From IMG/VR virus record IMGVR_UViG_2690315922_000022, positions 1 to 25,367 of that record: a stretch of 25,367 nucleotides of DNA; one strand, 5' to 3'. The translations under genes and the position numbers were made by a program. The notes beneath the pieces are model-generated. The model made no database searches. It saw only the letters and a list, made by a program, of their open reading frames with translations, and was not told where the DNA came from. Source of the DNA: a virus. Its lineage: Duplodnaviria > Heunggongvirae > Uroviricota > Caudoviricetes. This document shows positions 2,595 to 13,562 of this stretch, in pieces; position 1 is the stretch's first letter; every line of letters begins with the position of its first letter.

Positions 2595-4017
2595 AACAAT
2601 TAAAATCAACTTCTACATACTATTTATTATTTTGTTTTTTATTATAACATGTAATATTTACTACTATGATGATGTATTTAGATCGTATTGGGGATATTAT
2701 GGTTGGTCTGAAGATGGAAGGCCTTTTGCAGATTTATTCTATAAATTATTTATTTTCTTTAGATCTGAAAGCATACCAGATATTTACCCACTACCACTAA
2801 TTTTAACGTCTGTGCTTCTTGTTATATCACTAACAAAGGCATTGCAAAATATACTATCAAAAGATGGGGTTATAGTTAATATAACTTTTGCAATATTTAT
2901 GCTTAATCCTTTTCTTTTGTCTAATATGCTATTTAGATATGATGGTGCATTTATGATTTTATCTATTGCACTTTCGGCTATTCCGTTCATTTTTACAAAA
3001 AGTAGAACATTCGCCATATCATCACTACTGTGCCTAACAATATCGCTTGGATTGTATCAGGCCTCAATAAATGTGTATATTGGACTTGCATCAGTAGTGG
3101 TTGCAATGGAAGCATTGAAAGGGGAAAAGTTTACATCTATAGCCAGCAGAGTGCTATTATCTGTTACATGCGTAGTCTCTTCATATGTTATATACTCAAA
3201 ATTAATACTTGAATCATTATCTTTAAATAATAACTTCTCGAAATATGCTCAAATAGTTGAATTAAATAAAGGAGGAGTCATCAATGTTTATGAGAATATA
3301 ATTAACGCAGTTAAAAAAATTGATGTTGCTCTTCATAGTGGTATTGGAACACCTCTTTATATATTTCTATCAATAATAGCCATATCATCTGTGTGTGTTG
3401 CCATTAAACGAAAACAATTTCAGTTACTATTTTTTATTGCTATATCTATTTTAGGTTGTTTCTTTTCTTCTTTTGGTGTGTCTGTCTTTGGGAAATCGCC
3501 AGTATTTGTGTCAAGGATATTTATCGGATTTGGTGTTTTTATAATGGCAGTTCCTTTGATTGGCTCAGCACTTCTTAATTGGAAACTTAATTACTTACTA
3601 TCATTATTCATTGCAATTCCTATGCTGTCCATCTTTTTTGCCACCATTAATGCCTCAAGAGAGGAATTTAAATTCCAAAACAATTTATCACTTCAAATGA
3701 TTAATGATATTAATCATAGCAAAGCTAAATATCTCGACTTTGTTGTTATTGATGGCTATGCGAAGAACTCCTCTGTTGCAAGCATAAATAAGAAAATATT
3801 TCCCGTAATATCTGATATATTGCCTCCTGTCTTTACAAATAGATATGATGGTGGGGTTTTTACATTGATGAGAAATGGACTAAAAGATGTTGTTAGTGCT
3901 GAGTCATCAGCTGCAGACAACGCGGTATCAATATCAGATGACGGAAATCTAATTTCTGACAATAATATATATAGCATTCATGCGACCAAAGATATTATTG
4001 TAATAAAATTAAAATAA
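2587..4017 (+). CDS. Serotype-specific O-antigen glucosyltransferase (GtrC-type polytopic membrane protein); exact specificity not identifiable
   Basis: 476-aa multi-TM protein as third gene of the gtr operon; very AT-rich compared with gtrAB, as is typical of horizontally acquired type-specific gtr genes. Confidence 0.8.
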
Positions 4018-4084: not shown

Positions 4085-6148
4085 CTAAGAAAAAATCCAA
4101 TTACCATACATTCCAGTTATTTCACTATATGTGCCTTCTTTATTTTTTAATTTAATCCAAGCGCCGAATTCAGTGGTGGCTACTTGCGTTACTTCTGAAG
4201 AGTTACTTACAAACCTTATATTTGCTACACCTATTGCTCTACTTGGTGATGAGATTGTCATAGCTCTTATTATTTTTAACTCTCTGAAATCACCAGTGCT
4301 ACTTGCAATTATATCAATATCATTAGTGCTATGGTTAAATATAATGGTGTTATTTAACAGCTTTGTATTTTGAAAAGATGTTATTGTGGCAATCCCTCCA
4401 ATAAATCCTCTTATCTGGGCCGGGCCAGTATCTCCACTATCATAGGCTAATGATGTGGTTATATTATCTTCCTCCTTTCCTATATGTATATCAATAAAGT
4501 ACTCTTTTAAACTAATACCAGCCAAAACTAAAAATGTTGATATAGTAGATGTACATTTTTTAATAACCAGATTCTTAAAATTTCGAGATAACCCGCTGCT
4601 TATTGGATCAATAGTTCTAGGTAATAATCTGATTATTTTATCCCCACCAGCTATAGTAGTTTCATCAACAATTTCACCTATTTCCACAAAAAGGCGGTCA
4701 TCCCCCAGCATTTCAAAAACACAAAAGTCTAAAGGAGACGTTTTAAATACCACTCTATCAATTAAGATTTTCCCTATACCATTTCCCATAACTCTAGTAG
4801 CTGTCACCCCTCTGTTAGTCACATTCGTTAGTGTTGTATTCCCCGAGATGATTACATCAGCTACAAGACTGTCAGGGAAAATATTAAGTTCCAAACCAGT
4901 ATACGCACCATTGATGTATGGGTTTGAGATTTCACAATTAATCAGCCGAGGGACAGTGTGTCCAGGCACACTTTCGTCTGCCTCTGGTTCAATATCTATG
5001 CCAGATTTCGGCATAGCACCTGTAACACCTCCGTAGTCACCAATATTATAAATCTCAGGATTAACTATTATTATGTTTTCACCTGACGTTAGGCTTATAC
5101 CGTTACGCCTGCATTGTTTGATGATCGGTTTTTCTATATAGATATTTTCTGGGACCGTGCCATCGGTAGTCCCCCACTTCATGCCTATATATATTCCGTC
5201 GCCAAACATGTTGGTATACAGTCCACCAATAATACGAATATTAGAGGATTGAAGTATTGTAAGCCCCCACCCATGTTCTCCTTCGGATGTGTTTGTTAAC
5301 CGATCACCTTCCAGTACAGGATTATAAATATTTACATTTTTAACACCGTTTGCTATGTAAATGATATGGCTTTGTGGCCTGTTTTGATTTGCTAGTTTTA
5401 ATGCCCCATCCTTTTCAAACCTTATAGTGCTATTATCTACGCATCTTAACACAGATTTAAAAGCATCATTTCCAGGTGAAAAAGGGTCTTCATTCACAGC
5501 CATCAAGTTTTCAAATGATTTATCTATAATGAATTCTGCACCAATAGACGCTGCGGATTCATACGCTTTTTGTAGTGTTTGTGCGTCATTGCAAAAATCA
5601 GAAGCATAAATAGAGCTGGTTTTCTTTAATTCAAATATCCTACCGTTTCTGCTCCTGATAATTAATATTCCATCTGGGGTGAGCGTGGGGGTGGATGATT
5701 CATAAACATATCTACCATGAATCATTACATGATTAAATATATCTGGGACATCCTCTTGCTCTATATTAATAGCAACATATATAAGTTTATTACTTAACTC
5801 CCCCCTTAACTGATCAGGGTCATACTTCAGCACATTCTGGAAATAGAACTGCTGTACGCCATACGCATCATAAACAGCCATAGAATGGCCTTGCACGGTT
5901 ACGAACTTGGCAATCTGTCCGTTATATACAGGGTAACCAGCAGCGTTAATGATGATTGGTTGCGATACAGGAACGTGAGAGCCGTCTTCGTTCTCCACAT
6001 AAACCTGAATCTGGTTTTCAGGATTTACCGGGTCAGTATCAATTTTACCGATATAAATTTTGCCATTAGCTACGGCTTTAAAAGAACGCGCCATAGTGAA
6101 GAGTTGCGAAGGCATGCTAACTACAACATTGGCTGTAATGTCTGTCAT
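4085..6148 (-). CDS. Tailspike protein: P22/Sf6-type N-terminal head-binding domain plus divergent right-handed beta-helix receptor-binding domain (probable O-antigen depolymerase)
   Basis: 687 aa; the first ~110 aa ([34 protein letters not shown]...KYDPDQ) match the conserved tailspike N-terminal domain as I recall it; the remainder is AT-rich with beta-helix-like repeats ([22 protein letters not shown]); GGAG RBS 9 nt upstream. Confidence 0.85.
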
Positions 6149-6248: not shown

Positions 6249-7127
6249 TCAGTAGTTATGTACTGAAGGAGGTAATTCTTTATTCTTAAGTCTCATCCAT
6301 GCGGAAAGATTCGTTGGTCCGTCTGGCTCATTAATATCAACATCTCGTGTGTGATTGATTAAAACGTCTCTCGCCATTCCGATAACATACGAGAACTCAT
6401 GACCGTAGTCGTAGCATCTGCCGGAATAGTTCGATTGAATTTGTTTTAGCGCCGGATACAGTTCGCGGAATAATGCCTGTGAGCGGTTAGCATAATCCCA
6501 TAACCATACAAGGCTGTTTGCTTCTTTTGCAGAAAGCTCGTCGGTTTTCTTCTCTTGTTTGCCAATGAACTCGCCTTCAAGCACTACCCTGTGGATGTAC
6601 TCTACGGCCAGCGGGATTTGTTCAATTGAAAGTTCATCAATACTGTCAATACCAAAACGCTGATGAACCATATTGTATGCATCGTCATAGCGAAGTCCTT
6701 TCTTTCCTACCAGCATGTTTACTGCATCGCGTAGCGGTGTTCTTTCCTCAACAGTGGTTTTCTTTCCTTTTACATACTCGCCATGTTTGCGAATTGAAGG
6801 CAGAACTTCTGCTGTTACCCATTTGCGGAATTTGTGCGGGACTGAACCTTTATTGACTGCATCGCGGCAGCGCAGAACCAATGTATACATACCTGATTCG
6901 CTCACAATGCTTAGATTCTGCTCACCACCAAGGGTGTAACTTAAAGTTACTCCCTTTTCATCGTCATCAAGTGCAGTAAGCGCCTTGCGTGAGTTAGTCA
7001 AAGCTAAAGCATCACAAACATCTTTAGCTACAAACCACGGCTCACCGCACTTGTTGATGACGCGGATTTCACTGTCGCCGAATTTGAAGATGGTGAAATC
7101 GTTTTGTGCCTTTGCTATACTTTTCAT
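6249..7127 (-). CDS. ant: Antirepressor Ant (Bro-N / KilA-type N-terminal domain plus ANT C-terminal domain)
   Basis: 292 aa (P22 Ant is about 300 aa); N-terminal [11 protein letters not shown]...[14 protein letters not shown] motif; located immediately downstream of the arc-like gene as in P22 immI. Confidence 0.85.
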
Positions 7128-7199
7128 GTCAATATTTCCTAATCCGATTTGTTGATACCGAAGCCCTGACTGTTACAGCAGTTGGGGCTTCAACTTTTT
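7128..7199 (+). ncRNA. sar: Candidate sar-like antisense RNA covering the ant RBS and arc-ant intergenic region
   Basis: Plus-strand hairpin GAAGCCC (7160-7166) / GGGCTTC (7185-7191) followed by T5 (7195-7199), antisense to the ant leader; no plus-strand gene is upstream. The 5' end is not defined and promoter elements are weak. Confidence 0.3.
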
Positions 7200-7330
7200 A
7201 GGCTGCGAATAAGACGCTGCACTATTTCTGAATTTAAAGACCTGCCCTCCTCCTTAGCCTTTTCCTTCAATTTTTCTTTAATCTCTGGCGGGATACGAAT
7301 CCCTAATGGAGCGATATCTCTAACTTTCAT
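7190..7330 (-). CDS. arc: Arc-like ribbon-helix-helix repressor
   Basis: 46-aa product from the internal Met (MKVRDIAPLGIRIPPEIKEKLKEKAKEEGRSLNSEIVQRLIRSLKS) with the RHH signature GRS-NSEI; the 87-aa upstream extension is rejected because it would run across the divergent promoter into mnt. Confidence 0.6.
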   Translation of the reverse strand: MKVRDIAPLGIRIPPEIKEKLKEKAKEEGRSLNSEIVQRLIRSLKS

Positions 7331-7440: not shown

Positions 7441-7689
7441 ATGAAAGGTGCAAGAGATATCAGTCCCTTGGGAATTAGGATTCCAGACTATTTAAAGAAA
7501 CGCATTCAGCAGGAAGCGGATAAAAACGGCAGATCAATGAACTCAGAGATTGTGCTTATCCTTCAAAAACATGTTGATAATCTTGATGGCCCTCGCTCAC
7601 TTGAAGGATTCGCTAACCAAGAAGCTGATAAATTCAAAGAGGCGCTGCTTGAGACGCTGAAAACCATGTATGGCAAGGATGAAAAATGA
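7441..7689 (+). CDS. mnt: Mnt-like ribbon-helix-helix repressor with C-terminal coiled-coil
   Basis: 82 aa from the Met preceded by AGGAGG; N-terminus RDISPLGIRIPDYLKKRIQQEADKNGRSMNSEI is an RHH fold; length matches P22 Mnt (83 aa); divergent from arc-ant. Confidence 0.7.
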   Translation: MKGARDISPLGIRIPDYLKKRIQQEADKNGRSMNSEIVLILQKHVDNLDGPRSLEGFANQEADKFKEALLETLKTMYGKDEK

Positions 7690-7895
7690 ACAAAAAACAG
7701 TTTATTAAGTCAACAACGTCAAGCAAGGAAGAGCTAGAGAAGGAGCTAAACTCCCTGAAATATGCTCTGTGCCTGGTTTACTCAAGACTGCCAATGGAAG
7801 ATAAAAACGCCATTTACAATGAAATGATTAACAGCCTTGATTTTAACGATAGAGACCTAGCATCCCACCTCAACAGCTTCCGCGTCCCTGAGTAA
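7686..7895 (+). CDS. Hypothetical 69-aa protein translationally coupled to mnt
   Basis: ATGA stop/start overlap with mnt; AAGGA RBS; AT-rich; no family recognised. Confidence 0.45.
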   Translation: MNKKQFIKSTTSSKEELEKELNSLKYALCLVYSRLPMEDKNAIYNEMINSLDFNDRDLASHLNSFRVPE

Positions 7896-8055
7896 TTCTA
7901 TTGCGGATTTGCTTCTTACGGTGGTTTAAGCTGGAGAGCTTGGCTTCTGCTTCTGATATTTGCGCATCAAGATCTTTAAGCTCAAGATCTGAAAGTCGCT
8001 GGTCAAGCAGGGTTTGGTTCAACTCAATGTTGTTCAGGCGTTCTTCTATGGTCAT
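7870..8055 (-). CDS. Hypothetical 62-aa coiled-coil protein
   Basis: Internal Met with strong RBS (AAGGAGAAATC-ATG); heptad-like sequence (LNNIELNQTLLDQRLSDLELKDLDAQISEAEAKL); its 3' end overlaps the convergent 69-aa gene by 26 nt. Confidence 0.4.
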   Translation of the reverse strand: MTIEERLNNIELNQTLLDQRLSDLELKDLDAQISEAEAKLSSLNHRKKQIRNRITQGRGSC

Positions 8056-8196
8056 GATTTCTCCTTGTTGAGGTTGATGTGAAACGATTGATTGTATACG
8101 CACTCTTTTGTTAGCTAGTAGCTTTGCTTAATCGCAAGATAAAGTTTCTGATTAATCCCTAAAAATCAAAAAATAAAGTTAAAACAGGTACATGAT

Positions 8197-8400
8197 ATGG
8201 AATGGATCATAGGATTTGTTGTTCTTGTCTTCATAGCCAGTATGTTTAAACCAAGAAGTTGCGATATCTGTGGTGCTGGATTTAAGAAAAAGTACTTCAC
8301 ATGGACTATCGATGGAAAGAAACAGCATCTTTGTCCGTACTGCAACAGTAAAATGGAGAGACGCAACAGCGATAGGCGCTTTAAGGATCGATTTGGTTAA
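8197..8400 (+). CDS. Hypothetical small membrane protein with zinc-ribbon-like C-terminus
   Basis: 67 aa: N-terminal TM helix (WIIGFVVLVFIASMF) followed by CDICG...CPYC, then a basic tail; terminator follows immediately. Confidence 0.5.
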   Translation: MEWIIGFVVLVFIASMFKPRSCDICGAGFKKKYFTWTIDGKKQHLCPYCNSKMERRNSDRRFKDRFG

Positions 8401-8413
8401 CCATTTTATCTCC

Positions 8414-8449
8414 AACAAAAAACCCACCTGACGGTGGGTTTCATTTCTT
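8414..8449. terminator. Bidirectional intrinsic terminator
   Basis: AACCCACC-TGAC-GGTGGGTT hairpin flanked by an A-run upstream and a T-rich tract downstream; lies between the convergent 8197-8400 (+) and 8448-8867 (-) genes. Confidence 0.55.
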
Positions 8450-8867
8450 AATCTTGCTTCGTGGAAGGTATAAGAGATGCATTTGCCTCTTTTGGCTTCA
8501 ATGTATACATCCCACCATTAAATGGATCAACAGCAAGCCAACCAATTAACCCACCAAACACAAGGTTTCCACCAATATACCAACCATTAGCATTGGCTTT
8601 GATTGGCAGGGTAACTGATTCGTACCCATCCTTTTCCATAGTGATCTGGTAGCTCTTTTTGCCAAAATAACTACCATCTGACTTGGCAAGAGTTACTCCT
8701 TGTGGAGTCTTGCCTTGCGCAACAATCACGCCTGATTCATCTTTTACCTTAAAGCTCGCACCGGAAGGGTTGCTGTTCACTTGCACAAGTTGCGTTTCAT
8801 CACCAACAATAGTTGCGCACCCAGATAACATCATAGCGCCAGCAACGACGCCAATAATCCTCTTCAT
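8448..8867 (-). CDS. Outer-membrane lipoprotein with PEGA-like beta-domain and glycine-rich hydrophobic C-terminal motif
   Basis: Signal peptide with lipobox (MKRIIGVVAGAMMLSGC, Ala at +2); mature region VNSNPSGASFKV...GKTP...EKDGYESVT fits the PEGA pattern; C-terminal GGNLVFGGLIGWLAVDPFNGGMY. An alternative start 12 nt upstream (MEIDMKR) is possible. Confidence 0.6.
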   Translation of the reverse strand: MKRIIGVVAGAMMLSGCATIVGDETQLVQVNSNPSGASFKVKDESGVIVAQGKTPQGVTLAKSDGSYFGKKSYQITMEKDGYESVTLPIKANANGWYIGGNLVFGGLIGWLAVDPFNGGMYTLKPKEANASLIPSTKQD

Positions 8868-8988
8868 ATCAATTTCCATATTTAAAAAACCGGAAACATC
8901 CTAATGACAAACCATTCAAATGTGAAGTAGGCAAAAGATGTTTACTTTTTTCATGATATCCTGTGAAAAACTAAGGAGAGTTAACCAT

Positions 8989-9474
8989 ATGAAAAAATCA
9001 CTGTTAATTATCCCGCTTCTGCTGGTTGGATGCGCAAAAGTAAGTGACTATCAAGCAAGTTGCGAACAACGCTATCACAAGCTTAGCGATATGGCTAATT
9101 GCCTTGATGCCAGTGTGAAGAACGACTCACGCATGGCATCAGCACCAACACCTAAGTTGTATGTCCTTGCTGCAAAGATGCTCGGGCAAGGTGTCGATGA
9201 AGGCAAGATAAGTGACGCACAGGCAAGGCTTGAGCTTCAGAATCTTTATGTTCAATTACAAAGCCAAGAACAAGCCCAACAAATAGCACAAAGCCAAGCA
9301 TTCCAGCAGGCTTTATTGAATTATCAGGCTGTAAACACAATGCAAGCGATCGAGCAAAAAGCGAGACAGCCTGTTATAACTCAACCCTATCCAACACGCG
9401 TTGACACTTACACAAACTGCAATTCAGGGTTTGGAAATACAGTCACATGCAACAGTAGCAGTAACATAAGATAA
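8989..9474 (+). CDS. Lipoprotein with Gln-rich coiled-coil region, function unknown
   Basis: Start at the internal Met preceded by AAGGAGAG RBS; lipobox signal MKKSLLIIPLLLVGC (Ala at +2); several Cys and a Q-rich helical segment; divergently transcribed from the neighbouring lipoprotein. Confidence 0.6.
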   Translation: MKKSLLIIPLLLVGCAKVSDYQASCEQRYHKLSDMANCLDASVKNDSRMASAPTPKLYVLAAKMLGQGVDEGKISDAQARLELQNLYVQLQSQEQAQQIAQSQAFQQALLNYQAVNTMQAIEQKARQPVITQPYPTRVDTYTNCNSGFGNTVTCNSSSNIR

Positions 9475-9564: not shown

Positions 9565-11562
9565 CTATTCTGACAACGCATCAGACTTGGCACCCTGAGT
9601 AATGGCGTTAATGGCCTTTTGCGCCTGCTGCATAGCTTTCTCAAACGCTGTTGATCCGCGTGGGGTATTTGCCATTCGGAGCATTGCATTTCTGAATGGC
9701 TCGCTCTCATAGGCGCGAGTAAGAAGTCCGTAGCTTACCGCTGCGCCAGTTGTCGCCGGGTTCATTGCCGTCCCATACCCGATAATGAACGGGATGGTTT
9801 GCTGCCCTGTTGGTGTTGTTACTGCTGCTTTTGCAGCCTGCTGCGTGGATTGCAGGTAGTTTTTCAATCCTTTCAGATAAGCGGCTTCCTGACCTTTAAA
9901 TGTGATGCCAGTCTGGTTTTGCAGGATGTTAAGCTGCCGAAGGAACTGGTCAGGGGATCCGCCAGATTTCTCCATCGCCTTTCCAATGATGCCATTGCGC
10001 ATTTGCGCCCTGCCAACACGACCAACTGAGTTATACAGCGTCTTAATTTCCGATTTGTTCTTGCTGAATAGCATGTTGTTGACAACTTCCGGCGTCAGGT
10101 CGCCTTTCATGAGAACATTCTTCAGCCTGGTATTCTTTAGTTTCGCCGCTTCGTCAGCGTAGACGGCATTGGCCTGCTGATATTTACGGAGAGTATCGTT
10201 GCCAAGATTCTGACCAATGGCACCATTGATATCGTCTGTCATTGCCTTGTAAACGCGCTGAATGGCAGCATCGGAACGGTTTGGTAACACTGGTCGTTCC
10301 CCCTTCACGTCCATTCTGAACTGGCTGCGCAGATCGCTTAATTGCTTCAAATCCAGATTTACCGGACCATCAGGACTAGCATTGCGAATAAGCTCATCAC
10401 GATAGGATTGAAGTTTTGAAATCGTCTCGTTATCAGCGACCTTACCAAGCTTCTGCAGGTTAGATATCTCAGTATCAATCTGCTGAATTGCTCGCACAGG
10501 CTGAATGTTTACTCCAGCCATAGCATTCTGAACCTGCTCCAGTCGATTACCGGCAGCACGACGAATTCCTGATGTTTTCGCTTTAAGGCTGTCAATAACA
10601 ACTGCCGGATCGTACTCGCCGAATTTATCAGCAAATCTCTGCACCAACTGGCTTCTCGCTTCCTGTTGCGTTGCTCTCATTCCGCTTGTGCCAGCCAGAG
10701 GGATATTTTCTGCTGTAGTCTGCGCCATTTTTCCGACGCGGGAAGTTGGTTGTAACAGGTCTGTGGTGTGCAGAGGAACTCCTTCACGCTCTGCAAATCT
10801 GATAGCCTGTTGCGCTTCTGGTGCGATAGCACCACGAACGCCACGATAAGCAGCACCTAATCCACGTCCGGCAGCGTTAATAGCACCGCCAGCCAGCACA
10901 CCAACGCCTAAATCGGTGGCGAGTGCTTCCGCATCATCTTTCGCACTGTTTGCAGCAAGTGATCCAACTGCGTTTTCTGCGAGAAGGCGAGTTGCCCCCT
11001 GAGCAATTCGACCAGCAAGTGTTGGTGCCTGTGTTGCCGCTCTCTCAACGCCAGCAGGAGTGAGGTAAGGCAATGCTTCAGCAAACACCCTGCCCTCTGT
11101 CGTTTGTGGAGTCAGCGCGCCTTGCTGAAGGCCAAAGTCCTGCTCTAATCCCTGCGTTGTTACTCGTGGCGCTGGTTGATATGTACCATCGCCAATGCCG
11201 AGTTTACCGCCAGCCCATGCAGCCGCACTTGTTACAGCATCGGCAACTGATGCAGGTATGTTTGCCACGTTCACGCCAGCCTGCACCAGTCCGCGACCAG
11301 TCTCTTTTACTGCTTCGCCAAGATCAGACATAAATCCACTTTGCTGTGGTTGTTGCTGTGCTACTGGTTGCTGTGTCTCCACTTGCTGCACAGATGGCAA
11401 TGGATAGGCAGCATAGAAAGCTTGCTTAGCCTGCTCTGCATTTTCTCCGGCTTGCGGGGCCACGACTTCATTGAAGTATTGCTCCTGAGCCTGCGCTTTT
11501 TGTTCTGGTGCTAACGCCTGATACTGTGGAGAGGCGATAACATCTTTCCATGCTTTAGCCAT
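9565..11562 (-). CDS. Ejection (E) protein, P22 gp16-like
   Basis: 665 aa, Ala/Gln/Gly-rich; position and composition match P22 gene 16; start overlaps the gp20 stop by 1 nt (TAATG). Confidence 0.8.
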   Translation of the reverse strand: MAKAWKDVIASPQYQALAPEQKAQAQEQYFNEVVAPQAGENAEQAKQAFYAAYPLPSVQQVETQQPVAQQQPQQSGFMSDLGEAVKETGRGLVQAGVNVANIPASVADAVTSAAAWAGGKLGIGDGTYQPAPRVTTQGLEQDFGLQQGALTPQTTEGRVFAEALPYLTPAGVERAATQAPTLAGRIAQGATRLLAENAVGSLAANSAKDDAEALATDLGVGVLAGGAINAAGRGLGAAYRGVRGAIAPEAQQAIRFAEREGVPLHTTDLLQPTSRVGKMAQTTAENIPLAGTSGMRATQQEARSQLVQRFADKFGEYDPAVVIDSLKAKTSGIRRAAGNRLEQVQNAMAGVNIQPVRAIQQIDTEISNLQKLGKVADNETISKLQSYRDELIRNASPDGPVNLDLKQLSDLRSQFRMDVKGERPVLPNRSDAAIQRVYKAMTDDINGAIGQNLGNDTLRKYQQANAVYADEAAKLKNTRLKNVLMKGDLTPEVVNNMLFSKNKSEIKTLYNSVGRVGRAQMRNGIIGKAMEKSGGSPDQFLRQLNILQNQTGITFKGQEAAYLKGLKNYLQSTQQAAKAAVTTPTGQQTIPFIIGYGTAMNPATTGAAVSYGLLTRAYESEPFRNAMLRMANTPRGSTAFEKAMQQAQKAINAITQGAKSDALSE

Positions 11563-12857
11563 TAATCACCCCATAGTGAAGAAAAGTTACTGCCAGTAGT
11601 AGATTGTTGCCCTGGCATATTCTGCACCGGCTCCTGATAATCAAACTGTTTTTTAACAGTGCTCAACTTGCTTTCAAGCTGATTTCTAATCTTTCCGATA
11701 GAGTCACGAAAAGCCTTTTCACTCATTTTGGGGCTTAGGGCACCAACCGCATCGGATAATTTTTTACCCTCAGCATCTGAAAGAGCGCCCATACCCTTCA
11801 GGGACTGCACCATAGGAAGGAATGTTTGAGCTTTAAAGGTGTCGAGCCTTGCTTCAAAGTTAGCCGCATCAGAGCCAGGAACTGTCGGAAACGCTGAGCG
11901 AATTCCTACTGCTTTTGAAAGGCCGGGGCTTTGCTCTATCTCGTTGAGAGAATCAAGCGCGGTGCTGAACGTATCAACTGCACCCTGAGCGGCGGCCTGC
12001 CTGTCAGCGCGGGCTATGTCAGCCTTTTGCCGAACATCTGCCTGTTTCTGTTTTAGCTCTTCAAGCTTTAACTGATTGCTTTCTCTGGCTATCTGTCTGT
12101 CCAGAGCCTTTTCTTGTAATTCTGCTCTTTGTATTTCGCGGGAAAGAGCAGCATTCTGTGCGCTGATGTTCTGTCCACGTATCTGGATGTCCTGACCACG
12201 CGCTGTTAGTGCTTCTCCAGCCTGATTGCTGCGGATTGTCTCTGCCAGCCTACCTCGGTCAATCTCACGACCAGCCATCTTGTCCTGAACATTGAAGTAG
12301 TCAATCGGACCGAGAGCAGCCATCCCAAGGTGATCAACAAACTCACCAAATCCTGAAGGATTCTGCTGATACATCTGAGCAACGTTATTAGGGTCAACAC
12401 CGACGCTAGTCAGTTCCTTGGCGTTGTTTTGCAGCCATGATTGCATTGCTTCTGGAGACGATGCCGCAAGACGAGCGCCAGCCGCTAAGGTGCCGATAGA
12501 ATTGCGCTGGTCTTCATCAATGAATCCCATGCCTTTACGAACGGATTCAATCTGGTCCGGATATTGAGTAGCCAACTGACGCAAAGCACCGCGATCACCA
12601 GACGCATAAGCATTAGCGTATGCCTGCTGAAATTCTTTCTGCCGCTGAGCCTGCTTTTCCTGCTGAAACACCCCCGCAATACCTGAAAGGCCTTGCAAAG
12701 CAGTCAGCCCAACATTGTTAGCGCCGGAACGCTCAATATCATTGTTCTGCCTGATAAGCTGAAGCGTATTGCCGATGTCATTTACGCTAGGAGCGTTTGA
12801 GTTGACGCCACCGATACCAGCCAACAATCCGCCATTTGATCCTTGCCAAGTAGCCAT
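11562..12857 (-). CDS. Ejection (E) protein, P22 gp20-like
   Basis: 431 aa; N-terminus MATWQGSNGGLLAGIGG... typical of gp20-type injection proteins; conserved order 7-20-16. Confidence 0.8.
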   Translation of the reverse strand: MATWQGSNGGLLAGIGGVNSNAPSVNDIGNTLQLIRQNNDIERSGANNVGLTALQGLSGIAGVFQQEKQAQRQKEFQQAYANAYASGDRGALRQLATQYPDQIESVRKGMGFIDEDQRNSIGTLAAGARLAASSPEAMQSWLQNNAKELTSVGVDPNNVAQMYQQNPSGFGEFVDHLGMAALGPIDYFNVQDKMAGREIDRGRLAETIRSNQAGEALTARGQDIQIRGQNISAQNAALSREIQRAELQEKALDRQIARESNQLKLEELKQKQADVRQKADIARADRQAAAQGAVDTFSTALDSLNEIEQSPGLSKAVGIRSAFPTVPGSDAANFEARLDTFKAQTFLPMVQSLKGMGALSDAEGKKLSDAVGALSPKMSEKAFRDSIGKIRNQLESKLSTVKKQFDYQEPVQNMPGQQSTTGSNFSSLWGD

Positions 12858-12866
12858 GATGACCCC

Positions 12867-13562
12867 TTAAAACAACGAGCCAAGCAGGCCAAGCCCGCCA
12901 CCAATTGCGGCGCCTAATCCAGTACCAAGTCCGGGGACAATAGAGCCAAGAGCGGCCCCAGTCATAGCTCCTGAAGCTCCTCCGCTAATTGCTGTCTGAA
13001 GACCTGATGGCTTATTGGCATTAGCAGCGGCGAGAGCTGCGCTTTGCTGTGCAATGCTGCTCATGTTGTTGGCGTATGTCTGCCCGGCGTTCGCCTGACC
13101 TTGCAACGCACCAAGGCCAATGTTTGCCAGATTGTTGTAGTTGCTCATCTGGTTTGATAACCACGACTGACCGAGAGTCGGCGCAATCGTAGCCAGTTGA
13201 TTGCTTGTGGCTGTCGATCCAAGTCCACCCGTTGCCTCCGCTGCAGCAAGACTCTGGTAACGCGCCTGACCTGCAAGGTCTTTATACTGCTGAGAGTTGT
13301 AATACTGATTAAGTGCCTGCCCCTGTCCTTCTAAACTGGAAAGATTCTGAAGCTGGTTAACATACTGCTCCGCAAGCGGCGTGAACGGAGCAAGGTTTTT
13401 CATGATCGTCTGCCACTGCTGATTTTGCAGGTCTGCGGCATACTTCTGAGCTTCTGCTGCATACTTTGCGCTTTTATCAGAGCTGCCACCTTTCCCGCCT
13501 TTTTCAGGGCAATAAGGTTCCTCGCCGCGCAGTTTTCTGCCCAGCTTAAATGCATATAACAT
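12867..13562 (-). CDS. Ejection (E) protein, P22 gp7-like
   Basis: 231 aa (P22 gp7 is 229 aa); N-terminus MLYAFKLGRKLRGEEP...EKGGKGGSS and glycine-rich C-terminus GAAIGGGLGLLGSLF match gp7 as I recall it. Confidence 0.85.
   Translation of the reverse strand: MLYAFKLGRKLRGEEPYCPEKGGKGGSSDKSAKYAAEAQKYAADLQNQQWQTIMKNLAPFTPLAEQYVNQLQNLSSLEGQGQALNQYYNSQQYKDLAGQARYQSLAAAEATGGLGSTATSNQLATIAPTLGQSWLSNQMSNYNNLANIGLGALQGQANAGQTYANNMSSIAQQSAALAAANANKPSGLQTAISGGASGAMTGAALGSIVPGLGTGLGAAIGGGLGLLGSLF

Follow-up and report, generated by a model that had tools for sequence, protein, structure and literature searches.

In lysogens of phage P22, the Pmnt operon is active and maintains the repression of ant. 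Between gene 16 and the tailspike gene, P22-like phages carry a highly variable moron that plays no part in morphogenesis, and late transcription crosses this ant moron on its way to the tailspike gene (PMC2629481, PMC8022706). In P22, the immI region at this location combines mnt, the divergent arc and ant genes, and the antisense RNA sar; a small gene, orf59a, lies directly behind mnt, and lysogenic-strand genes alternate with those of the late strand (Villafane et al. 2008, PMC2629481). In that phage, orf59a is not coupled to mnt by an ATGA overlap, and it is followed by a terminator and then by sieA, which has its own promoter.

The closest described relatives of the locus reported here are those of Emek and Kapi1. 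The two genes that are the subject of this work, orf69 and a convergent gene for a 61-aa protein, are already annotated as hypothetical in both (orf69/orf61 in Emek and Kapi1_062/Kapi1_061 in Kapi1), with 96-100% protein identity and the same 26-nt overlap, and are also present in RefSeq E. coli genomes. Emek differs from the present locus in having a 77-aa membrane-protein gene between mnt and orf69 and an annotated terminator against the ribosome binding site (RBS) of the 61-aa gene, while Kapi1 differs in the annotation of the 61-aa gene, which was extended there by 31 aa at the N-terminus and labeled with a reference to XhlA; neither feature is supported here. A gene of phage L designated 'orf62' (PMC8022706) was not recovered by tblastn and is probably a different gene. 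Neither ORF of the pair is discussed in the papers on Kapi1 and SieA.

Among type I toxin-antitoxin systems, txpA/RatA and bsrG/SR4 of Bacillus subtilis prophages each consist of a hydrophobic membrane peptide toxin and a non-coding RNA partner. These systems resemble the present pair in their convergent 3' overlap, their prophage location, and the small size of their products, but the present pair consists of two proteins, each hydrophilic and subject to purifying selection. A second point of comparison is the excludon, an established concept (PMC7154746, PMC12288877) in which, as here, opposite-strand neighbors are expected to give rise to overlapping transcripts; in the present case, these would plausibly belong to the lysogenic and late programs. 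Unlike in described excludons, the overlap here includes both coding sequences and not only untranslated regions.

Results

A convergent gene pair in the immI region of a P22-like prophage

The stretch of DNA analyzed (hereafter the window; 25,367 nucleotides) is a P22-like (Lederbergvirus) prophage. Its gene content includes an integrase gene, gtrA, gtrB, a GtrII-type glucosyltransferase gene, and Rz, together with a gene for a tailspike with a Head_binding domain (4085-6148, minus strand) and the ejection genes gp7 and gp20 (11562-13562, minus strand), both recognized by Pfam. A 665-aa ORF without a Pfam match that adjoins gp7 and gp20 (9565-11562, minus strand) is designated gp16 by position only. 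Pfam further identified ant (6249-7127, minus strand; P22_AR_C and Bro-N domains), arc (7190-7330, minus strand; Arc domain), and, divergent from both, a gene for an mnt-like ribbon-helix-helix repressor (7441-7689, plus strand; Arc domain, E 6e-8) in the position of P22 mnt. The antisense RNA sar was found at 7129-7195 on the plus strand (Rfam RF00262, 69.4 bits against a gathering score of 43). The region thus shares with the P22 immI region and ant moron its location between gene 16 and the tailspike gene, the divergent orientation of mnt and arc-ant, the presence of sar, a small gene immediately behind mnt, and the alternation of lysogenic-strand with late-strand genes.

The gene pair lies in this same variable region. 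The first gene, orf69 (7686-7895, plus strand), encodes 69 aa from an ATG at 7686-7688 to a TAA at 7893-7895, and its start codon forms an ATGA overlap with the TGA of the mnt-like ORF (7687-7689). This overlap is part of a coupling junction, AAGGATGnAAAATGA (7672-7689, plus strand), in which a Shine-Dalgarno-like AAGGA precedes the stop and start codons and which was conserved in 42 of 42 loci. The second gene (7870-8055, minus strand) runs from an ATG at 8055-8053 to a TGA at 7872-7870 and is preceded by an AAGGAG RBS (8061-8066, minus strand), placed 5 nt from the ATG and represented by TAAGGT or AGGA in other contexts. The 3' ends of the two genes share 26 nt that are coding on both strands (7870-7895). 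The initial annotation of this DNA, which had described a 69-aa ORF coupled to the repressor gene by an ATGA overlap and a convergent ORF with a near-consensus RBS and a 26-nt 3' overlap, agrees with these coordinates in each of these respects; it had assigned 62 aa to the convergent ORF, which is one too many, as 183 coding nt correspond to 61 aa.

The minus strand also carries gp16, gp20, gp7, ant, and the tailspike gene. The location of the 61-aa gene on this late-operon strand is a point that the initial annotation had missed. In P22, there is no homologue of the 61-aa gene, whereas in the window the gene behind mnt overlaps a convergent gene of the late strand.

Both ORFs are protein-coding genes

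Given the shortness of both ORFs, their membership in orphan families without a homologue of assigned function, and the existence of rare frame-shifted variants, one or both could in principle be chance open frames that are noncoding. Several lines of evidence speak against this. Outside the overlap, dN/dS (Nei-Gojobori) ranged from 0.04 to 0.17 across orf69 and the 61-aa gene, and from 0.05 to 0.15 for the 61-aa gene, in comparisons with L004, L005, and L007 (Serratia), relatives at 75-80% protein identity for which dS is near or beyond saturation. Variable sites among 35 unique pair sequences were concentrated at the third codon position in both reading frames, with 18, 14, and 45 sites at positions 1, 2, and 3 of orf69 and 22, 12, and 42 in the 61-aa gene. 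The start, stop, and length of both ORFs are conserved from Escherichia to Serratia. The frame-shifted variants are singletons compared with hundreds of intact copies.

Each protein also matches a family of its own over its full length, orf69 with phrog_16466 (E 3.9e-50, positions 1-69 of 69) and the 61-aa protein with phrog_7586 (E 3.3e-44, positions 1-61 of 61), both of them families without an assigned function. Because of the low dN/dS and the third-position bias of variable sites, we conclude that both ORFs are genuine protein-coding genes. The same two observations effectively refute the alternative of chance open frames, to which we assign a negligible probability.

The two genes are separable

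Among 63 IMG/VR loci with the 61-aa gene, 37 also carry orf69 and 26 do not. A similar distribution was found in 5426 complete E. coli genomes, where the 61-aa gene is present in 130 and orf69 in 74; all 74 of the latter carry both genes, and the 61-aa gene is alone in 56 of its 130 genomes. No instance of orf69 without the 61-aa gene was found (0/74 E. coli genomes, 0/37 IMG/VR loci), which could mean that orf69 depends on the 61-aa gene. The two families are represented in roughly 1-2% of complete E. coli genomes as well as in prophages of Salmonella and Serratia, and two scans of GTDB species-representative genomes returned no copy.

All 21 unique sequences of the 61-aa gene from loci without orf69 are intact, with 7, 9, and 23 variable sites at codon positions 1, 2, and 3. 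Its intactness and third-position bias in these loci imply that it would work independently of orf69. The two genes are separable, and the 61-aa gene has the wider distribution.

orf69 occupies a general cargo slot behind mnt

The AAGGA and ATGA elements of the coupling junction precede orf69 behind at least six ribbon-helix-helix repressor alleles as well as behind a 77-aa membrane-protein gene (42/42 loci). Since the same junction is found behind different upstream genes, it appears to travel with orf69. Where orf69 is missing, the slot behind mnt is filled by other coupled genes. One of these encodes a 105-aa secreted protein, its end lying 9 nt away from the stop codon of the 61-aa gene; another encodes a 122-aa protein; and a gene for a 178-aa ClpP-like protein is followed by a 30-codon remnant of orf69. 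Emek orf77 occupies the slot in Emek and orf59a does so in P22. The latter was considered as a homologue of orf69 and rejected, the two sequences being unrelated. The position behind mnt is therefore a general cargo slot, with orf69 as one of several alternative cargo genes. Presence or absence at the same position among related phages, with orf69 either replaced by unrelated cargo or absent, is the pattern of a moron, and the pair consists of accessory genes of the known variable ant moron, or immI region, in a P22-like prophage.

The orf69 protein is hydrophilic (pI 5.8, GRAVY -0.69), with a maximum Kyte-Doolittle 19-residue score of 0.25. AlphaFold2 predicts three helices (residues 14-34, 37-50, and 55-63) at a mean pLDDT of 76. 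Foldseek searches with this model gave no match in the PDB and only noise in BFVD, and a comparison of the protein with PADLOC gave no hit.

Because its translational coupling to mnt is conserved, orf69 can be placed in the Pmnt operon, and by analogy with P22, its expression in the lysogen can reasonably be inferred. We propose that orf69 is optional cargo of the lysogenic Pmnt operon which, bringing its own junction, would be translated by ribosomes leaving mnt or another cargo gene, and that the lysogen probably produces it as a small protein that is soluble and helical.

The 61-aa protein is a predicted soluble helix and not an XhlA homologue

The AlphaFold2 model of the 61-aa protein is a single helix spanning residues 3-59, with a mean pLDDT of 94. 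The N-terminal two-thirds of the protein are strongly conserved, and the C-terminal tail is basic and variable. With a GRAVY of -0.86 and a maximum Kyte-Doolittle 19-residue score of -0.28, the protein is not hydrophobic, and by the Kyte-Doolittle measure there is no membrane segment in either protein of the pair.

A full HMMER profile search with the 61-aa protein against 1.84 billion representatives recovered only its own family and one weak partial match (E 3.7e-4), and word-indexed searches covering 5.8 billion proteins, for which both single sequences and a profile served as queries, returned no more than the proteins' own families and thus no distant homologue of either. In Pfam and NCBIfam, neither protein scored above a curated threshold. 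Against PADLOC-DB, the matches of the 61-aa protein were weak and of the coiled-coil type, namely to PbeC (E 7e-4, 16 bits) and JetC, and orf69 had no hit, neither protein thus showing a significant match to a defense-system model.

Some RefSeq and CDD records, as well as that of Kapi1, label the 61-aa protein as XhlA. The XhlA protein of PBSX has a C-terminal membrane segment, and the 61-aa protein has no hydrophobic segment, its model being a single soluble helix. Against the XhlA family (PF10779), the 61-aa protein scored 14.1 bits compared with a gathering threshold of 34.7, and the extended gene models of 89-92 aa scored 10.4-12.9 bits. The label presupposes an extended N-terminus, which is not conserved. 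We therefore rejected the assignment on both grounds, and the annotation should be corrected, in that neither the 'hemolysin XhlA family protein' label nor the N-terminally extended gene models are supported.

The genomic context of the 61-aa gene suggests probable late transcription

Homology with most relatives stops approximately 10 nt upstream of the ATG of the 61-aa gene, and what lies beyond this point varies. The terminator hairpin that occupies 8420-8441 in the window stands directly against the RBS in 17 related loci, while four more have it at a distance of about 35 nt upstream, and in most other loci a divergent start codon on the lysogenic strand, belonging to sieA or to a gene for a small membrane protein, is found 25-35 nt from the ATG. 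With a terminator or a divergent start against the RBS, most contexts leave no room for a promoter of the gene's own, and it would therefore be expressed most simply by antiterminated late read-through. Thus, it is most likely that the 61-aa gene is transcribed only by antiterminated late transcription toward the tailspike gene.

No usable promoter was predicted for the gene in the window; the only match on its own strand (8083-8054) overlaps the start codon, and the same scan missed Pmnt too. The window does contain an AT-rich spacer of 141 nt (8056-8196) between the 61-aa gene and the divergent orf67, a context that varies among phages, and this spacer could hold a promoter that a simple scan would miss.

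On the opposite strand, the first intrinsic terminator downstream of orf69 is the bidirectional one predicted at 8420-8441, the scan having identified none on the plus strand between this position and the orf69 stop. The plus strand downstream of orf69 is also G-rich and C-poor, and would as such be a poor substrate for Rho. Taken together, these two properties suggest that a transcript from Pmnt would run through the whole of the 61-aa gene, probably crossing it in the antisense direction. Antisense overlap is in any case unavoidable if both genes are transcribed, because their coding regions share 26 nt. In the lysogen, the 61-aa gene would not be expressed, and the 3' part of the Pmnt transcript would extend over it without being translated.

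The overlap is fixed in position and lies over a tolerant protein tail

The 26-nt geometry was the same in 43 of 43 loci with both genes, including a Serratia locus, and it was found again in L112/L113, a further divergent lineage added later. The overlap is the most conserved nucleotide stretch of the alignment, which is what double coding would predict. Within it, the wobble position of orf69 lies opposite codon position 2 of the 61-aa gene, and four of the seven variable sites are silent in orf69 and change the 61-aa protein. In loci without orf69, codons 53-61 of the 61-aa gene lack a third-position bias (3, 5, and 4 variable sites at positions 1, 2, and 3), and the AlphaFold2 pLDDT of the protein drops to 58 at its C-terminus.

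We found no conserved hairpin in the nucleotide alignment of the overlap and no excess of RNA structure in the overlap region on either strand relative to shuffled sequence (z -0.49 and -0.16). A search of the overlap for terminators and other structured RNA was likewise negative, and the palindrome AAGCTGGAGAGCTT lacks conservation among the divergent relatives.

Discussion

Based on the data presented above, the most probable reading, though one held with only moderate confidence, is that orf69 and the 61-aa gene are two independent small accessory genes of opposite programs, orf69 lysogenic and the 61-aa gene late, which are tightly packed and whose overlap is a by-product of that packing. 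In this arrangement, the end of orf69 would have come to lie over the tail of the 61-aa protein, which is disordered and under weak constraint, and the overlap would then have been held fixed by double coding constraint. The coding status of the genes, their conserved geometry, separability, and strands, and the lack of homologues are direct observations; the timing of expression, deduced from geometry, the extents of the transcripts, and the functional independence of the two genes are inferred.

The initial annotation had instead suggested a pair with an exclusion or addiction function, and this is not supported by our results. The 61-aa gene occurs alone in about 40% of its carriers and is intact and under selection there, neither protein is hydrophobic, no match to PADLOC, Pfam, or NCBIfam rises above threshold, and the slot behind mnt accepts cargo in general. 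Both classical forms of such a system were also rejected individually. A type I toxin-antitoxin system would have a hydrophobic peptide, which neither protein resembles (19-residue maxima of 0.25 and -0.28), and both partners here are selected as proteins; a type II system is at odds with the convergent orientation of the genes and with the 56 of 130 E. coli genomes in which the 61-aa gene stands alone.

Other readings of the locus differ in when the 61-aa gene is expressed and in whether the overlap itself is under selection. Rather than being late, the 61-aa gene might be a moron with its own promoter that is expressed in the lysogen like its neighbors. The 141-nt AT-rich spacer to orf67, shared by the window and 11 related loci with the same upstream sequence, would provide space for such a promoter, and the promoter scan is insensitive; however, most contexts lack this space, having a terminator or a divergent start codon against the RBS, and the end of inter-context homology about 10 nt upstream of the ATG implies that no promoter travels with the gene. 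We consider this reading rather unlikely. It is also conceivable that the overlap is not a by-product but a selected, excludon-like antisense switch that makes the two programs mutually exclusive. In the lysogen, the long 3' part of the Pmnt transcript, fully complementary to the mRNA of the 61-aa gene including its RBS, would silence that gene by way of RNase III or polymerase collision, and in the lytic cycle the antiterminated late transcript would shut off mnt and orf69. Such a switch would account for the conservation of the convergent overlap in all loci with both genes and for the orientation of the 61-aa gene, which faces the repressor operon convergently in all contexts observed. The first plus-strand terminator also lies beyond the 5' end of the 61-aa gene, immediately so in Emek-type loci; divergent lysogenic-strand genes such as sieA start about 25 nt from its ATG, implying that their transcription begins in or passes through the 61-aa gene; and the same region is already under antisense control via sar. 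On the other hand, a gap of 9-22 nt separates the end of the convergent gene from the 61-aa gene in type B and type C loci, indicating that coding overlap is not required, and no conserved RNA structure was found. Overlapping transcription is moreover common in bacteria and often without consequence, and Rho could terminate the untranslated Pmnt transcript early. An antisense interplay of the pair is plausible from its layout, and the retention of the overlap through saturating synonymous divergence is compatible with a selected role, but we regard a dedicated switch as unlikely, while still deserving serious consideration.

Two further readings give the proteins themselves a part in the interaction. 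If the whole cassette were a device for lysis-lysogeny exclusion, the untranslated 3' part of the Pmnt transcript, possibly along with the orf69 protein, would hold a late coiled-coil effector, the 61-aa protein, off in the lysogen, and upon induction antiterminated late transcription would both produce this effector and act antisense on mnt and orf69. A possible target of the effector would be another coiled-coil protein, for example the tetramerization domain of Mnt. This elaborate scheme, which we view as improbable, would if true mean that immI is controlled at one more level in addition to Mnt, Arc, and sar. More improbable still is a purely antagonistic protein pair, in which orf69 made in the lysogen neutralizes the 61-aa coiled-coil protein, or in which the two act jointly in superinfection exclusion. 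That orf69 is never found without the 61-aa gene, that the two are inherited as one cassette with similar divergence, and that known exclusion genes (sieA) adjoin the pair in related phages would all fit such antagonism. Yet common descent together with the 26 nt that the genes share can also account for the one-sided co-occurrence, and the persistence of an intact 61-aa gene alone, in E. coli genomes and in 26 of 63 IMG/VR loci alike, implies that it does not require a partner and that its presence without one is not toxic. The lack of a membrane segment in either protein and of any PADLOC, Pfam, or NCBIfam match above threshold weighs against this pairing as well, the convergent layout is unlike that of type II toxin-antitoxin operons, and orf69, as a selected protein and not an antisense RNA, is unlike the partner in type I systems.

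Returning to the reading of two independent accessory genes, the consequences for the locus depend on whether the antisense arrangement has a function. If it is regulatory, the classic immI circuit would be extended; if it is not, the pair would be a clean example of a stable convergent coding overlap on a tolerant protein tail. In either case, P22-like phages have between gene 16 and their tailspike gene a known hotspot of prophage-expressed functions, including SieA exclusion and antirepressor control, to which two orphan protein families, both conserved and clearly under selection, are now added.

Gene models, paralogues and a fusion of the 61-aa gene

The RefSeq models of the 61-aa gene (window 7870-8055, minus strand; protein records P0047-P0049) and its annotation in phage Kapi1 (Kapi1_061) carry 28-31 extra N-terminal residues that derive from the gene callers and are antisense to the signal peptide of the adjoining gene. 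This extension is not conserved. Some records of the extended form are labeled "hemolysin XhlA family protein", but XhlA family membership is not supported, the score falling far below the Pfam gathering threshold (PF10779, 34.7 bits).

The accessory region of a Salmonella prophage (L110) contains two paralogous copies of the gene, at 3001-3177 and 4983-5168, which are 72% and 98% identical to the copy in the window, together with a gene encoding a SocA_Panacea domain. In protein P0086, from an E. coli contig, residues 1-28 of the 61-aa product are fused in frame with the Ant C-terminus, implying that one prophage lost orf69 (the ORF that follows mnt), mnt, arc, and most of ant by a deletion.

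Neighboring genes and RNA elements

Divergent from the 61-aa gene lies orf67 (window 8197-8400, plus strand), which encodes a 67-aa protein with a hydrophobic N-terminal segment and a CxxC...CxxC zinc-ribbon-like motif. The same accessory region contains two mutually divergent putative lipoprotein genes, one of 143 aa at 8448-8879 (minus strand; phrog_6823), the product of which has a Cor-like signal peptide and a weak match to the PEGA domain, and another at 8938-9474 (plus strand; phrog_6067). A bidirectional intrinsic terminator (8420-8441) separates orf67 from the 143-aa lipoprotein gene, and in 17 related loci this same hairpin directly abuts the 61-aa gene at its ribosome-binding site.

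Between arc and ant, the plus strand carries at 7129-7195 an antisense RNA that is clearly homologous to sar of P22 (Rfam RF00262, 69.4 bits), with its terminator hairpin at 7160-7191.

Related phages and the position behind mnt

In the P22 locus (L109, from NC_002371), the late strand contains an ORF at 2850-3227 (plus strand of L109) that encodes 121-125 aa, including an HExxH motif; it is situated opposite the annotated sieA promoter and has no entry in the RefSeq feature table. Locus L062 contains a 121-aa ORF with an identical N-terminal sequence. It is possible that the P22 ORF is the hkcC of PMC2629481.

The slot immediately 3' of mnt carries different cargo in different phages. It encodes a 105-aa secreted protein in L010 (3196-3513) and a 178-aa ClpP-like protein in L049 and L062 (3264-3800), in each case coupled to mnt by a start codon that overlaps the mnt stop codon, and a 77-aa membrane protein in Emek (L002, 2782-3015) that starts 3 nt past the mnt stop codon. 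The mnt-downstream slot looks like a general position for lysogenic cargo.
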